Origin: Minisyncoccota bacterium
GTDB lineage: Bacteria; Patescibacteriota; Minisyncoccia; Phycocordibacterales; UBA918
Direction: 5' to 3'
Length of the DNA stretch: 64,000 nt
Assembly: GCA_021129515.1 (NCBI GenBank)
Contig: JAJOLD010000001.1
Location: 257,217-321,216, forward strand
Shown here: positions 4,986 through 13,425 of the stretch, piece by piece
How the letters are laid out: the number at the start of each line of letters is the position of its first letter
Position numbering within the stretch: the stretch's first letter is position 1
Made by a program: the position numbers and the translations under genes
Notes under the pieces: model-generated
Told to the model about the DNA's origin: nothing
The model's input: only the letters and a program-made list of their open reading frames with translations
Databases searched by the model: none

Positions 4986-7033
4986 CTCCCCCGTGTATAC
5001 TCACGAAACTAATTATGACTCAAAATAACAATACAACATATGAAGGCACCCTCCTTGTGCGCGGGAAAGGCATAGGATTTGTTTCTATTCCCGACCACGA
5101 GGAGGATATTGTGATTCCAACCGAATCACTTAATTTCGGACTGGATGGCGACAGAGTCGAAATCGAACTCCTCGACCCGAGAGCAGCTCACGCTGCACGG
5201 GCAGGAAAAAAGCCCGGCGAACGACAAGAAGGGCGCGTAGTGCGTGTTATCGAACCCGCACGTAGTGAGTTTGTGGGGCTTGTTGAAATGAAACCTACTC
5301 CCACAAGTGGGTCGGGCGGGAAAGAAAACTGGCGACTCCTCCCAGACAACCGCCGTATCCATATTCGCCCAGTACTTCCCGAGGCAACTGATACCCACAA
5401 AGGCATGAAGGTGGTGGTAACCATTGACGCATGGCAGAATCCCCATGTAGATCCTGTTGGTAGTATCACTGAAGTGCTCGGTCCTGCAGGCAACCATGAG
5501 ACTGAAATGCAAGCCATCATCCGCAGCGGCGGATTCTCAGAAAACTTCCCCGAACACATCGCTCGCGCCGGGCAAGAACTCTACGAGCAGCGTGAGGACA
5601 TTTTTACAAAAGCCATCGAAGACACCAAAGGTGACAATCCTCGCCGTCGTGATATGCGCCATGCGCCTACCTGTACCATTGACCCGGCTGACGCAAAAGA
5701 CTTTGACGACGCTATTTCGCTTGAGCTTTTAGAAAATGGACATGTGTCAGTCGGTATTCATATTGCTGACGTATCGCACTATGTGCAAGACGGCGACGAT
5801 ATCGACATGGAAGCACGTGAGCGTGGTACCTCTATATACCTTGTAGACCGTGTCATTCCGATGCTTCCTGAGGTACTTTCAAACGATCTCTGTTCACTGC
5901 GACCCCACGAAGACCGGCTCGCCTTCTCTGCCGTATTTGAAATGAATGAAAAGGGAGAGATTTTTGACGAATGGTACGGACAAACCATCATCCACTCCGA
6001 TAAACGCTTTAGCTACGAGGAAGCACAAACTGTGCTCGACAACCAAGATGGCGAGATGCTCACTGAACTCAATAGCATCATGACCATCTCCCGAGCACTC
6101 AGGAAACAACGATATAAAAATGGTGCAATTGCCTTTGAACAACCAGAGGTGCGCTTCGAACTCGATGACGACGGCAAACCAATACGTGCATACACCAAAG
6201 TACGCACTGAAACCATGCTTATGATTGAGGACCTCATGCTCCTTGCAAACCGCAAGGTCGCCGAGTATGTACACCAGTTGAGCAAAAAGCACAATCACGA
6301 AGCAGCATTCGTGTATCGTATTCACGACGAACCAAACCAGGAGAGAATTGAAGACCTCGCAACCTTCTTGCACGCACTCGGGCACGAATTTAAGACACAC
6401 CAAGGCATCGTCAGCTCAAAAGAAATCAACAAAATGCTCAAAGGGATTGAAGGTAAACCCGAAGAAGAGCTCATCAAGACTGCCACTATTCGCTCAATGG
6501 CAAAAGCAATCTACACCACCAAGAATATTGGACACTTTGGACTTGCGTTTAAGTTCTACACCCACTTCACCTCACCTATTCGTCGCTATCCTGACCTCAT
6601 GGTGCATCGTATGCTACGCAGGCACTTAGACCAATCTCCAATCAGCAAGAAGGAGCTCACTAAGTATGAGAACCTCTCTGCACAATCTTCAGAACGTGAA
6701 ATGACCGCCGTGCGTGCAGAACGTGACTCTATCAAGTACAAGCAAGTGGAATATATGCAGGGCAAGGTAGACCAAGAATTCGACGGCACCGTAACCGGCG
6801 TCACCGACTGGGGCGTATATGTTGAGGATAAAGAATCACGCGCCGAGGGTATGGTACGCCTCGCGAGTATCAAAGGTGATTATTACGAACACGATGCGAA
6901 AAAGTATCGCATCAAAGGGCAACGTACCGGACGCACCCTCTCACTCGGTGCAGACGTCCGCATCAAGCTCGTCCGTGCAGACATGGAAGAGCGACAGCTT
7001 GATTTTGAGTTAGTGGAAAAAAAGAAGAAATAA
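4973..7033 (+). CDS. rnr: ribonuclease R (RNB exoribonuclease with a C-terminal S1 domain)
   Basis: The RNB catalytic core is present, including the FTSPIRRYPDLMVHR motif. The C-terminal S1 domain reads EFDGTVTGVTDWGVYVE. The real start is probably MTQNNN at ~5015. Confidence 0.93.
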   Translation: MSTYPPPCILTKLIMTQNNNTTYEGTLLVRGKGIGFVSIPDHEEDIVIPTESLNFGLDGDRVEIELLDPRAAHAARAGKKPGERQEGRVVRVIEPARSEFVGLVEMKPTPTSGSGGKENWRLLPDNRRIHIRPVLPEATDTHKGMKVVVTIDAWQNPHVDPVGSITEVLGPAGNHETEMQAIIRSGGFSENFPEHIARAGQELYEQREDIFTKAIEDTKGDNPRRRDMRHAPTCTIDPADAKDFDDAISLELLENGHVSVGIHIADVSHYVQDGDDIDMEARERGTSIYLVDRVIPMLPEVLSNDLCSLRPHEDRLAFSAVFEMNEKGEIFDEWYGQTIIHSDKRFSYEEAQTVLDNQDGEMLTELNSIMTISRALRKQRYKNGAIAFEQPEVRFELDDDGKPIRAYTKVRTETMLMIEDLMLLANRKVAEYVHQLSKKHNHEAAFVYRIHDEPNQERIEDLATFLHALGHEFKTHQGIVSSKEINKMLKGIEGKPEEELIKTATIRSMAKAIYTTKNIGHFGLAFKFYTHFTSPIRRYPDLMVHRMLRRHLDQSPISKKELTKYENLSAQSSEREMTAVRAERDSIKYKQVEYMQGKVDQEFDGTVTGVTDWGVYVEDKESRAEGMVRLASIKGDYYEHDAKKYRIKGQRTGRTLSLGADVRIKLVRADMEERQLDFELVEKKKK

Positions 7034-9918: not shown

Positions 9919-10428
9919 CTATCCCGATGATTTCCCAAGTATAACGATATATGCATTCGTATCCTCCGTACCACCTGCACCACCCCAGCTACTGCAGATT
10001 AATTCTGTATTATTACCCAGCGCATCATTTTCCATATGCGCAACTAAGATTGCTTGGGTGTCATGCCCGCCACATACTTGTGAACCATCATAATAGTAGA
10101 TGTAATCTGTAGTGGTAGTTATTGGGTCACGAGGCACTTCCGTGATAAATGAGGAAAGTAATGTGGTTATATCGTTGTTGTTTTCACCAACATAACCACT
10201 ATATCCGTCACTCTCTCGTGGATAATGTCCATGAATATCAAAATATACTTCCAATGCGAGTTGGATTTGTGCCAAATCAGCAATGCGTTTCTTATCGCGA
10301 GCGTTTTGTCGTGCATCACCAAAGGATGGCAGCACAATCGCCAACAATACAATAACAATTGCCAACACCACAAGCATTTCTACGAGCGTAAAGCCCTGTG
10401 CACGCGTGTTATATCTCATACGGTACAT
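9919..10428 (-). CDS. type IV pilin / pseudopilin (prepilin-type N-terminal cleavage/methylation domain)
   Basis: The N-terminus ...AQGFTLVEMLVVLAIVIVLLAIVLPSF is the class III signal peptide (G|FTLVE) plus the hydrophobic alpha-1 helix. Confidence 0.85.
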   Translation of the reverse strand: MYRMRYNTRAQGFTLVEMLVVLAIVIVLLAIVLPSFGDARQNARDKKRIADLAQIQLALEVYFDIHGHYPRESDGYSGYVGENNNDITTLLSSFITEVPRDPITTTTDYIYYYDGSQVCGGHDTQAILVAHMENDALGNNTELICSSWGGAGGTEDTNAYIVILGKSSG

Positions 10429-10475: not shown

Positions 10476-11186
10476 TTACCATCCTTTTTTCTCAATCGCT
10501 GCGGCTGCAGCATTTTGCTCTGCTTCTTGTTTTGCGCGCCCTTGCCCTTCTGCAATTTGTTCCTCTCCAAGAAAGACACCAACGGTAAAAACTCGGTCAT
10601 GGTCAGGACCTTCTTGATTTAATACTGCGTAGCTCGGGGTAATATTGACATGCTCCTGTGCAACTTCCTGGAAGCGACTTTTTGCGTCTTGCCACAGACG
10701 TTTTTCAACGATGTTTTCAGTTTGTGCAAACAGGTACTCAGCAATAAATGCTTTTGCAGCTGCATACCCTTGATCGAGATACAACGCACCAACAAGTGCC
10801 TCAAACGCATTTGCAAGAATATACTGTCGGGCACGCCCAGTATCTTTTGCCTCGCCTTTAGAAAGGAGCAAATACTCATTAACACCCATTTTTCCTGATG
10901 CTTCAGCAAGTGACACCGTATTCACCAGTGCAGCACGAATTGCAGTCAGCTCGCCTTCAGGCTTATCTGCATATTTTTCAAAAAGAAAATCAGTGACCAC
11001 AAGCTCGAGGACGGCGTCCCCTAAAAACTCATAGCGTTCGTTATGATCCTGAGTTGCTTCTCGATGTTCGTTTAAATATGAGCGATGCGTCAATGCTACC
11101 AAGAGGTGTTTTTTTTCGGTAAAGGTCACACTAATAACATCCTCAAAACGAGCAAGATGCGCATCAATATCTACAGTTTCAGTCAT
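10476..11186 (-). CDS. rnc: ribonuclease III
   Basis: Shows the RNase III signature ERYEFLGDAVLELVVTDFLF and a C-terminal dsRBD. Confidence 0.95.
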   Translation of the reverse strand: MTETVDIDAHLARFEDVISVTFTEKKHLLVALTHRSYLNEHREATQDHNERYEFLGDAVLELVVTDFLFEKYADKPEGELTAIRAALVNTVSLAEASGKMGVNEYLLLSKGEAKDTGRARQYILANAFEALVGALYLDQGYAAAKAFIAEYLFAQTENIVEKRLWQDAKSRFQEVAQEHVNITPSYAVLNQEGPDHDRVFTVGVFLGEEQIAEGQGRAKQEAEQNAAAAAIEKKGW

Positions 11187-11337: not shown

Positions 11338-12264
11338 CTATTTCGATCCTCTTCCTACCAACATCGTCACTGCCTTCGTCACAATTGGGAGGATATCCTC
11401 GTAAAAGTTGAGTTCGAGAATATCAGCAACTTTAAACCATTGTGCATCATCAAGCCCTCCCTTCTTCTCAAGCTCCAAATCTTTAAATGCAGCTCGCGCA
11501 AGGACATAGTGTACTTGTTTTCGAACTTTACCTTTTTCGGGTTGTGAGGCAACGTATTCATTCATACCCAGCTCATCCTCAACTTCAATATCGAGTCCAA
11601 TTTCTTCTTTGATTTTTCGTTTTGCGCCCTCGTGGAGGTCTTCATTTTCATCAATACCACCTTTTGAGAGGGTCCAATGTCCAAATATATCGTGCACCAA
11701 AGCAAGATACATTTCACCATCTTCTTCCGCATAGATAACACCACCAGCAAGACGCTCAATAGGCATATCCTCAAACTTCACCACTTTCTTTTTATGCTTT
11801 GAACTTTCCTCCTTGCCTGGCTCACCAATTTCCTTGTATACCGCCCCCAATACGCCGTTTACAAAACGGCTGGAGTTATCGCCCCCAAACTGCTTTGCAA
11901 GCTCAATTGCCTCGTTGATGGCAACTTTTGCAGGCACTTCTGAACGGTCAGCAAACAGCAACTCATAGAGCCCTAAGCGTAAAATGTTTCTATCAACTGG
12001 AGAAATTCGATCAATAGGCCACTCAGGTGCAGCCTTTTCAATCACTAAATCAAGCTCACTTTGTTTTCCAAGTACCCCATCGAGCAATTTCTCCATAAAG
12101 GGCATATCTGTTTTGTTGGGCGCAAATTCCTCAACATTTCGTTTTAAAACTTCGACGACTTCATTCTTCTCTACACCATTTAAATCCCACTCGAAGAGTG
12201 ATTGAAGAACAATTGAACGCGATAGGTGCCTGTTTGCCATATTCGTATGAAAAATAATGAACAC
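11338..12264 (-). CDS. nusB: NusB (transcription antitermination factor) fused to a C-terminal NUDIX hydrolase domain
   Basis: The N-terminal ~150 aa is NusB-like (RHLSRSIVLQSLFEWDL ... FVNGVLGAVYKEI). The C-terminal ~140 aa carries a Nudix box (GHWTLSKGGIDENEDLHEGAKRKIKEEIGL). Confidence 0.85.
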   Translation of the reverse strand: MFIIFHTNMANRHLSRSIVLQSLFEWDLNGVEKNEVVEVLKRNVEEFAPNKTDMPFMEKLLDGVLGKQSELDLVIEKAAPEWPIDRISPVDRNILRLGLYELLFADRSEVPAKVAINEAIELAKQFGGDNSSRFVNGVLGAVYKEIGEPGKEESSKHKKKVVKFEDMPIERLAGGVIYAEEDGEMYLALVHDIFGHWTLSKGGIDENEDLHEGAKRKIKEEIGLDIEVEDELGMNEYVASQPEKGKVRKQVHYVLARAAFKDLELEKKGGLDDAQWFKVADILELNFYEDILPIVTKAVTMLVGRGSK

Positions 12265-12329
12265 TACTGTATTAATGAACTACCTACTATAGTAGCAGAT
12301 TCACAGCATGCCGTGTATCACCTAATCCC

Positions 12330-12357
12330 CAAACGTCCCGCAAAAGCGGGACGTTTG
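12330..12357. other. hairpin (CAAACGTCCCGC-AAAA-GCGGGACGTTTG) downstream of rpmF; possible terminator lacking a clear U-tract
   Basis: Perfect 12-bp stem. Confidence 0.45.
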
Positions 12358-12380
12358 AAAATGAGTGTCGGTGTATACCA

Positions 12381-12801: not shown

Positions 12802-13425
12802 CTAAGATACTCTTCTATATATTGCTGCATCTACAGCTGAGAGGCACTGCCGTATGTCAAAGTAGTACCAGCCCGCACAGTATAAGCCAAATACATTGAC
12901 CGTATGACCATTTGCCGTTTCAAACTTACCAGACTGTTCAGGAAACACCACTGATTTTTTTTGGGGGTCAGCGGTCATACTCTGAACTACAGCCTCCAAC
13001 CCCGCATTCGCGTCTGACTGTGTATCAGCCATATGCCGTGTGTACACTGCTTGGAGTGTTCCTCCAAGCAATATATTCCGTTCTTGACAAACTTCAGCAA
13101 ACGCCTCAGACAATTGGCAGGTAGGCATGGGTGCTTCAAGTGATGCATATATTACACCACTCGATTCTTGAGTCTCAGTGTATACACGACGCAGGTGTAC
13201 ATAACAGCACCACCACTGATCCAACGGTACAGGCACCTTAAGCGACACCGGTCCCCCCGCGCACATAAGCTTATCCCGAGCAGCTTCTACCATCGTGTTC
13301 ACCACAGGAGTACCACATTTTGGATGCGCGATAATATCCCATGTTATGCATCCTTGAGCATGCTCCTGCACAACGCGCATATTTAAGGACTCTAGAAATT
13401 GTACAACTGGTGTATCGGTCTGCAT
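12802..13425 (-). CDS. hypothetical Cys/His-rich protein; a YceD/DUF177-like role is suggested by position upstream of rpmF only
   Basis: 207-aa ORF directly upstream of rpmF on the same strand. No motif-level confirmation. Confidence 0.45.
   Translation of the reverse strand: MQTDTPVVQFLESLNMRVVQEHAQGCITWDIIAHPKCGTPVVNTMVEAARDKLMCAGGPVSLKVPVPLDQWWCCYVHLRRVYTETQESSGVIYASLEAPMPTCQLSEAFAEVCQERNILLGGTLQAVYTRHMADTQSDANAGLEAVVQSMTADPQKKSVVFPEQSGKFETANGHTVNVFGLYCAGWYYFDIRQCLSAVDAAIYRRVS

Follow-up and report, generated by a model that had tools for sequence, protein, structure and literature searches.

A putative nucleotide-binding Nudix domain, of Ap4A-hydrolase descent, fused to the antitermination factor NusB across Paceibacteria-class Patescibacteria

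NusB, together with ribosomal protein S10, binds BoxA in the nascent leader of ribosomal RNA (rRNA) and nucleates the antitermination complex there. The only widely known protein, to our knowledge, that links a NusB-type domain to an rRNA-acting enzyme fold is RsmB (also Sun), the 16S rRNA 5-methylcytosine methyltransferase. Nudix domains have their own connections to RNA. RppH (NudH) is a Nudix enzyme of the diadenosine polyphosphate (ApnA) hydrolase type that acts on RNA 5' ends, including dinucleoside tetraphosphate (Np4N) caps (PMC7705103, PMC6061791), and CFIm25 (NUDT21) binds diadenosine tetraphosphate (Ap4A) and ATP without hydrolyzing them, within an RNA-processing factor (PMC2425470). 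Nudix domains that lack catalysis are typically parts of multidomain proteins and binders of small molecules (PMC5389931). Here we describe a gene in which the two folds meet. In a 64,000-nucleotide stretch of contig JAJOLD010000001.1 (assembly GCA_021129515.1) from a Minisyncoccota bacterium, hereafter the window, a single coding sequence joins NusB to a Nudix domain whose catalytic motif is incomplete and whose nucleotide pocket is conserved.

The fusion gene lies on the minus strand (11338..12240) and encodes 300 amino acids plus a stop from an ATG at 12240. The initial annotation had drawn a NusB–Nudix fusion at 11338-12264 with no strand given, and the open reading frame (ORF) of that extent is real: it is unbroken on the minus strand, with no stop or frameshift, amounts in the mechanical ORF list to 308 amino acids if read from a GTG, and contains all three of the peptide strings then quoted. 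What did not stand is the outer start, GTG 12264, which is probably unused. Because homologs of the protein uniformly begin MANRHLSRS, and because gene callers in three assemblies independently begin it at the equivalent of the 12240 ATG to give 300 amino acids, ATG 12240 is likely the true start. Both domains were recovered far above their Pfam cut-offs, NusB (PF01029) at amino acids 15-144 of the 308-residue ORF (7-136 of the 300-residue protein) with E=3.7e-36 and a score of 124.9 bits (cut-off 23.1), and NUDIX (PF00293) at amino acids 175-290 of the ORF (167-282 of the protein) with E=5.5e-14 and a score of 52.8 bits (cut-off 21.1).

Three segments, all on the minus strand, make up the 300-residue protein. 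An all-helical NusB domain (amino acids 1-140; 11821..12240), recognized by Pfam, NCBIfam, PDB, AlphaFold2 (AF2) and Foldseek, is followed by a charged linker, PGKEESSKHKKKVVKFEDMP (amino acids 141-160; 11761..11820), that is disordered by AF2 confidence, and then by a Nudix-fold domain (amino acids 161-298; 11347..11760) that Pfam, a profile search of the PDB and Foldseek place in the asymmetric Ap4A-hydrolase lineage. The AF2 model, built from a 79-sequence alignment, has a mean predicted local distance difference test (pLDDT) score of 88.8. Its NusB half consists of seven helices (amino acids 1-138; pLDDT mostly 84-97) and its Nudix half is an alpha/beta/alpha fold (amino acids 161-298; pLDDT mostly 89-97, with 73-79 at the edges and in one loop). 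Since pLDDT falls below 50 at amino acids 141-151 of the linker and the predicted template modeling score of the whole protein is 0.54, the model indicates that the two halves would have no fixed mutual orientation and that the Nudix domain would be flexibly tethered.

A survey of related genomes, proposed when the fusion was first annotated, found the same architecture many times over. We scanned GTDB, one genome per species, with the family alignment as the query, and analyzed the best 80 of 597 relatives' loci with purpose-built domain hidden Markov models (HMMs). NusB and Nudix share one ORF in 46 of these 80 loci, which come from Kaiser-, Zambryski-, Nomura-, Niyogi-, Ryan- and Komeilibacteria as well as Paceibacterota/Parcubacteria; a stand-alone NusB of 140-192 amino acids is found in 27, from Moran-, Azam-, Yanofsky-, Wildermuthbacteria and others. 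A word-indexed protein search returned at least 8000 matches. The closest 120 matches listed are about 300 amino acids long, carry both Pfam domains without exception and are 80-88% identical to the window protein; where named, they are labeled simply NusB (Kaiserbacteria, Paceibacterota, Patescibacteria). An exhaustive HMMER search of 1.84 billion representatives clustered at 50% identity gave 157 matches at E<=1e-30, about 55 of them full-length fusions, and these reach down to ~30-32% identity. Judged from these sequences, the NusB–Nudix fusion is widespread in Paceibacteria-class Patescibacteria, where it is old, diversified and lineage-wide. We found no description of a NusB–Nudix protein in the open-access literature searched, and a 2017 review of the Nudix clan mentions neither NusB nor antitermination.

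The short matches in the HMMER set are mostly fragments that still bear the NusB end or the linker. Three others (P0212, P0215 and P0270; 141-171 amino acids) begin with the Met of 'MP(I/V)E', a conserved motif at the start of the Nudix half (fusion amino acids 159-162), and may represent genes that were split, starts called internally or fragments at contig edges. At two GTDB loci (L046, 6001-6956; L048, 5992-6546) the frame is broken into two overlapping or adjacent ORFs, which could reflect sequencing error or a pseudogene.

There is next to no chance that the fusion is an artefact in which two adjacent genes were merged by a sequencing or assembly error or a missed stop. The identical 300-residue product is encoded on four contigs out of three independent assemblies, which rules out misassembly at the join. 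The same single-ORF architecture recurs in the 46 species-level genomes and the ~55 representatives, both Pfam domains are present in all 120 of the closest homologs, and the breaks in the two interrupted loci lie inside the NusB part rather than between the domains. The single-ORF fusion is genuine, and is neither a chance ORF nor a product of assembly or gene calling.

The N-terminal half was first annotated as NusB, and that identity was borne out. It scores 132.8 bits against the NCBIfam nusB equivalog TIGR01951 (cut-off 88.35), though a second NusB equivalog model, NF001223, falls short at 101.9 against 131. Sequence search of the PDB matched NusB structures at 6e-21, and Foldseek aligned the modeled half to the NusB structures 3imq, 3r2c, 3r2d and 1eyv with TM (template modeling) scores of 0.84-0.89. 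An FVNGVLG motif and N-terminal Arg residues are near-invariant in this half. The gene also sits where a nusB is expected. Its upstream neighbor is rpmF (ribosomal protein L32; 12381..12707, minus strand; Pfam PF01783, E=7.6e-18) and its downstream neighbor rnc (RNase III; 10476..11186, minus strand; Pfam Ribonuclease_3 and dsrm). Among loci that extend far enough, rpmF lies upstream of nusB in almost all, and rnc follows nusB in essentially every one, whether or not a Nudix domain is present. The order rnhB-rpmF-nusB-rnc-(pilin)-smc is common to the window, the 46 fusion loci and the 27 stand-alone loci. Because the gene fills the rpmF-nusB-rnc-smc slot that a stand-alone nusB holds in sister lineages, it is the organism's orthologous NusB, and it is the only NusB visible in the 64-kb window.

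NusB-like domains also serve as the N-terminal targeting domains of RsmB, and RsmB models do match amino acids 16-160 weakly, as might be expected if the N-terminal half were an RNA-targeting domain of the RsmB/Sun type and the true NusB lay elsewhere in the genome. We regard this as very improbable. The RsmB models reach 21-64 bits against cut-offs of 269-540, whereas the NusB equivalog cut-off is exceeded; the locus sits where sister lineages keep their stand-alone nusB; neither the 80 GTDB loci nor the window contain a second NusB; and the NCBI annotation names these proteins NusB.

The stand-alone loci also speak to how the fusion arose. At the 27 loci with a stand-alone nusB, no ORF of the fused Nudix subfamily occurs within +-6 kb, and nusB abuts rnc. 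Because these loci hold neither a second NusB nor a nearby ORF of this subfamily, the Nudix domain was appended to an existing nusB at its 3' end and not acquired by merging neighboring genes; an origin from adjacent genes was rejected for the sampled lineages. In a neighbor-joining tree of the NusB part alone, the fusion-bearing NusBs form essentially one clade, with few exceptions. Stand-alone NusBs of the sister lineages often carry charged C-terminal tails of 20-46 amino acids ('GEPMKDDSSEK...') that resemble the fusion linker, and in three NusBs of 338-345 amino acids (P0247, P0253 and P0257) a long, low-complexity Lys/Glu-rich C-terminal extension takes the place of the Nudix domain. These tails and extensions suggest that in these lineages NusB is often elaborated at its C terminus.

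A search of the 64-kb window for the BoxA consensus returned one match with 2 mismatches against 2.7 expected by chance, and so gave no signal; the window contains neither an rRNA operon nor rpsJ. A promoter and terminator scan around the gene found nothing above background that bears on the fusion.

We then asked where the Nudix half comes from, using a profile of 48 Nudix halves against the sequences of the PDB. The Ap4A hydrolase aq_158 of Aquifex (3i7u) ranked first (E=4.5e-24), followed by CT771 of Chlamydia trachomatis (4ilq; 7.5e-17), the Ap6A hydrolase Ndx1 of Thermus thermophilus (1vc8; 3e-14), and the Ap4A hydrolases of Caenorhabditis elegans (1kt9; 3.8e-14) and human (NUDT2, 3u53; 1.4e-13); Dcp2 and mycobacterial MutT1 ranked lower. 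Foldseek likewise placed 3i7u at the top of the structural matches (TM 0.86). The Nudix domain of NrtR bound to ADP-ribose (3gz8) and AraR (5bs6) were also among the sequence or structural matches. The RppH models of NCBIfam (NF001936, NF001938 and NF001937) scored 26.2, 22.3 and 20.3 bits, far short of the 118, 116 and 139 that they respectively require. This ranking, with the RppH models so far below their cut-offs, argues that the Nudix half is a descendant of the asymmetric ApnA/Ap4A-hydrolase lineage and not an RppH ortholog. The initial annotation had proposed a pyrophosphohydrolase activity, for example on (p)ppGpp or Np4N or on NAD- or Np4-capped RNA 5' ends, and alignment with the RppH/NudC families. 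The Np4N-type lineage was well guessed, with the Aquifex, CT771, Ndx1 and NUDT2 enzymes as best relatives; the activity as worded was not sustained, and RppH/NudC-type membership was not supported.

A complete Nudix box had also been read in the protein, and here careful alignment disagreed. Compared with the consensus GX5EX7REUXEEXGU, the box GGIDENEDLHEGAKRKIKEEIGL (amino acids 194-216; 11593..11661, minus strand) has G194, E200, R208, K209, I210, E212, E213, G215 and L216. The residues at box positions G1, E7, R15, E19, E20 and G22 are kept, and position 16 is Lys: K209, encoded by AAA at 11614..11616 (minus strand), stands in place of the Glu of the 'RE' pair. Loss of catalytic Glu residues, which the initial annotation had named as grounds for rejecting its reading, is therefore partial, affecting that Glu and sparing E200, E212 and E213. 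The HMM alignment to 1kt9, along with the known RppH motif, makes K209 equivalent to E53 of RppH/MutT and E52 of the C. elegans Ap4A hydrolase. In Escherichia coli RppH the Nudix motif comprises residues 38-60, and the E53A variant is catalytically inactive (PMC6061791); RExxEE is the motif by which Nudix enzymes bind their essential metal cofactor (PMC5526541). Because the complete box that defines the enzymes is absent, we class the window protein neither with the enzymatically defined Nudix hydrolases nor with RppH.

To see how far this state is shared, we compared a close set, the 120 nearest homologs (>=80% identical), with a diverse set of 102 fusions (the query, the 46 GTDB species and 55 representatives). 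Taken over the seven diagnostic residues, the close set shows the canonical GEREEEG in 56/120, the window's GERKEEG in 28/120 and SERAEEG in 23/120. Position 16 alone is Glu in 58, Lys in 29, Ala in 24, Ser in 8 and Arg in 1, while E7, R15, E19, E20 and G22 are each retained in 113-120 of the 120. In the diverse set the canonical box persists in 25/102, a measure of decay that is gauged against the published motif definition. Position 16 is there Glu in 34, Lys in 21, Val in 15, Ile in 13 and Ala in 10, and the other box residues are kept in 86 (G1), 73 (E7), 72 (R15), 71 (E19), 85 (E20) and 82 (G22). By conservation, box 16 ranks 86th of the 135 columns of the Nudix half. Canonical and degenerate boxes are interleaved on the tree of the diverse set, which implies that box residues were lost repeatedly and independently. 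A further difference lies outside the box: at the position of G262 the Ap4A hydrolases of Aquifex and C. elegans and CT771 all have Glu, and this position is Gly in 85/102 fusions.

These data bear directly on whether the domain is an active pyrophosphohydrolase, acting on Ap4A/Np4N or removing 5'-triphosphates or Np4 caps as RppH does, that NusB delivers to nascent rRNA or to the transcription complex. Much would fit such an enzyme: its Ap4A-hydrolase ancestry, the example of RppH/NudH, a Nudix Ap4A hydrolase with Np4N-decapping activity (PMC7705103), the presence of E200, R208, E212, E213 and G215 at almost invariant positions, the full box in nearly half of the closest homologs, an intact substrate pocket (below) and the adjoining RNase III gene. 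We nevertheless think it rather unlikely, though it remains the most serious competitor. The window protein has Lys at the position where E53A abolishes RppH activity, and box 16 switches among Glu, Lys, Ala and Ser between sequences at least 80% identical, which would not be expected of a residue needed by the selected function. The sparse retention of the box among diverse fusions, the Gly at position 262 and the low RppH scores point the same way. Since box 16 is Glu in under half of either set and only about a quarter of diverse fusions keep the whole box, and since the equivalent RppH variant is inactive, pyrophosphohydrolase activity could not, on this evidence, be the function selected family-wide, and it is doubtful for the window protein.

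The nucleotide pocket tells a different story from the box. Conservation within the Nudix half is highest at W268, Y280, W189, K193, T190, G166, D184, Y245 and Y229. HMM alignments to the C. elegans and human Ap4A hydrolases match several residues of the window protein to ligands of the P1 phosphate or of the stacked adenine in the solved structures (PMC4734340). K193 (C. elegans K36, human K42) and K241 (K83, K89) correspond to P1-phosphate ligands, Y229 (Y76 region, Y82) to a residue that contacts the P1 phosphate and stacks on adenine, Y280 (Y121, human F128) to an adenine-stacking residue, and H188 (H31, the human phosphate-binding His) to another P1-phosphate ligand. The first four are invariant in the 120 closest homologs. 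Across the 102 diverse fusions K193 is kept in 98 (plus 2 Arg), Y229 in 89 (plus 6 Phe), K241 in 82 (plus 13 Arg) and Y280 in 98, or 93-98% with K/R and Y/F pooled; position 188 varies (His in 30, Tyr in 28, Lys in 24, Arg in 8). W189 is present in 98/102, and its WxxPKG motif is common to the fusions and the Ap4A hydrolases. All four pocket residues occur together in 68 of the 77 fusions with a non-canonical box, and in 18 of the 22 that retain at most one of the four motif glutamates. Because the pocket residues persist where box glutamates are lost, the nucleotide pocket is under selection of its own, separate from any on the catalytic motif. The Nudix half has diverged further than the NusB half (mean pairwise identity 36% vs 48%) and is still always full-length.

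SuhB is an enzyme-fold protein that serves in the E. coli rRNA antitermination complex. The Nudix domain could by analogy be a purely structural or protein-interaction module that has no nucleotide ligand, with RNA polymerase, S10 or another member of the complex as its partner. Decay of the catalytic residues and retention of a full-length domain in streamlined genomes over deep divergence (~30% identity) are consistent with that idea, as are the acidic character of the domain (net charge -12), which could dock on basic partners and the precedent of non-catalytic Nudix domains in protein interaction (PMC5389931). The pattern of conservation makes it improbable, however: the best-conserved surface-type residues, K193, Y229, K241 and Y280, are the phosphate and adenine binders of the solved Ap4A hydrolases (PMC4734340), and box E20 is still present in 85/102, a pattern that favors a nucleotide pocket over a new interface.

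We favor, with moderate confidence, a different reading, in which the domain is an adenine-nucleotide-polyphosphate-binding module tethered to NusB and the antitermination complex, for which hydrolysis is dispensable. In a large Paceibacteria-class clade, NusB would have gained an Ap4A-hydrolase-derived Nudix domain on a charged, flexible tether of ~20 amino acids, with a reach of roughly 5-6 nm, which would hold the pocket within a few nanometres of the rRNA leader and RNA polymerase. The selected role of the domain would be to bind an adenine-nucleotide polyphosphate, not necessarily to hydrolyze it. One candidate ligand is free Ap4A/Np4N or an ATP-like nucleotide, serving as a regulatory input; another is the 5' end, triphosphorylated or Np4-capped, of the nascent leader that NusB holds at BoxA. 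With E200, E212 and E213 kept and Lys in place of the 'RE' Glu, the window protein would be expected to bind with little or no turnover. Lineages with a canonical box may still hydrolyze the ligand; in others, and probably in the window protein, that activity would be weakened or gone. The status of a nucleotide or of the RNA 5' end would in this way be coupled to NusB-dependent rRNA transcription and processing, RNase III being encoded by the next gene. The pattern of non-catalytic ligand-binding modules such as CFIm25 and NrtR, which form a class by function and not by homology, is a degenerate box with a kept pocket in a multidomain regulator. It fits at the level of the family (102 fusions); the window's own clade, however, keeps five of the six key box residues.

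Several observations weigh against this binding role. In the window's own clade E7, R15, E19, E20 and G22 are almost invariant, so the metal-phosphate site may still be under selection and residual or altered turnover may persist. The box is fully canonical in 47% of the nearest homologs. The catalytic base differs among Nudix enzymes (PMC5526541), and a Lys at box 16 does not by itself prove that activity is lost. Folding, and not ligand binding, may explain the conservation of W189, W268 and Y245. Finally, the Nudix half is acidic (net charge -12 in the window protein, family mean -5), which disfavors extended RNA binding; a CFIm25-like RNA-binding role was considered and set aside as unlikely for this reason.

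A bolder version of the proposal seems to us rather unlikely: that a Nudix-bearing NusB replaces the plain NusB class-wide, and that a pseudoenzyme or weak enzyme within it reads Ap4A/Np4N levels or the 5'-triphosphate or Np4-cap status of the leader. If this were true, rRNA antitermination and processing would respond directly to nucleotide-stress signaling; we know of no model bacterium in which such an input to the Nus complex has been described. Very small genomes rarely retain useless sequence, and in these very small genomes NusB, usually treated as a minimal single-domain adaptor, is a two-domain protein lineage-wide. The appended domain comes from a family that degrades Ap4A and strips Np4 caps from RNA, and its motif erodes while its pocket stays. 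This combination may provide a concrete connection, open to experiment, from the chemistry of dinucleotide polyphosphates or RNA 5' ends to the machinery of rRNA antitermination, together with a natural series, from active-looking to degenerate variants, for studying the change from enzyme to sensor. Thousands of database entries titled 'transcription antitermination factor NusB' conceal the second domain.

Further features were seen in the window and at related loci. The stand-alone Nudix gene noted beside trmD in the initial annotation is real: it encodes 144 amino acids on the minus strand (2139-2573; Pfam E=1.8e-16), immediately upstream of trmD (1451-2119). In the PDB it is closest to Arabidopsis NUDT1 and MutT/MTH1-type enzymes (2e-11), not to ApnA hydrolases, and its box, GGIEVGD...REVKEECGS, keeps RExxEE but carries Asp at box 7 and Ser at box 23. 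This protein is probably the housekeeping nucleotide sanitizer and has no close tie to the fused domain. Between rpmF and nusB lies a spacer of 140 nt that folds at -48.1 kcal/mol (z=-5.4 vs shuffles) and includes, by folding, a 17-bp GC-rich hairpin, AUUUUCAAACGUCCCGC-UUUU-GCGGGACGUUUGGGGAU (12325-12362, minus strand). No U-tract follows this hairpin, and the terminator scan therefore missed it; it is possibly a terminator of rpmF or an attenuator ahead of nusB. Analogous hairpins follow rpmF in the close relatives L002, L003 and L008, and the spacer is just 2-5 nt in many other lineages. Two further rpmF-nusB spacers look like inserted palindromic elements or miniature inverted-repeat transposable element (MITE)-like elements: 257 nt in L004 (approximately 1452-1708), with a very long near-perfect inverted repeat (minimum free energy -127.5 kcal/mol), and 133 nt in L005 (approximately 5868-6000), which forms a long hairpin. 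An ORF of 207 amino acids between rnhB and rpmF (12802-13425, minus strand) has no Pfam match; gene calls in three independent assemblies include it, there too with no Pfam match. In several related loci rnhB and rpmF lie much closer together, which suggests that this ORF is not universal among them. Between rnc and smc, Pfam identifies a type IV pilin-like gene (N_methyl and T2SSG; 9919-10428, minus strand), and the same interval in relatives holds from zero to three tandem pilin-like genes (L001 1768-3700).

Set beside the systems it most resembles, the fusion combines familiar parts in a different arrangement. Its N-terminal 140 amino acids share the equivalog, the helical fold and the rpmF-nusB-rnc slot of the stand-alone NusBs of E. 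coli, Aquifex, Thermotoga maritima and Mycobacterium tuberculosis. Those are single-domain proteins of ~140 amino acids, however, and the window protein adds ~160 amino acids of linker and Nudix domain at the C terminus. With the asymmetric Ap4A hydrolases (aq_158, CT771, Ndx1, the C. elegans enzyme, NUDT2 and the N-domain of mycobacterial MutT1) it shares WxxPKG, the Lys/Lys pair for the P1 phosphate, the stacking Tyr and the Tyr/Phe. Unlike those free-standing enzymes, its Nudix domain is tied to a transcription factor, has Lys for the 'RE' Glu and has G262 for the Glu they share. RppH is likewise free-standing and has the catalytic E53 where the fusion has K209, and the fusion scores well below the RppH models. 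CFIm25, NrtR and the AraR of Bacteroides are similar to it in carrying a degenerate-box Nudix fold inside a multidomain or multisubunit RNA or transcription factor. They are kin of its Nudix domain at the superfamily level only, and their partners are winged-helix DNA-binding domains or CFIm68; in the fusion, moreover, box decay is partial and lineage-dependent, not fixed. In RsmB/Sun the NusB-like domain is a paralog and a separate nusB exists, whereas in the window fusion the orthologous nusB itself carries the second domain, and its partner is a Nudix fold, not a methyltransferase.

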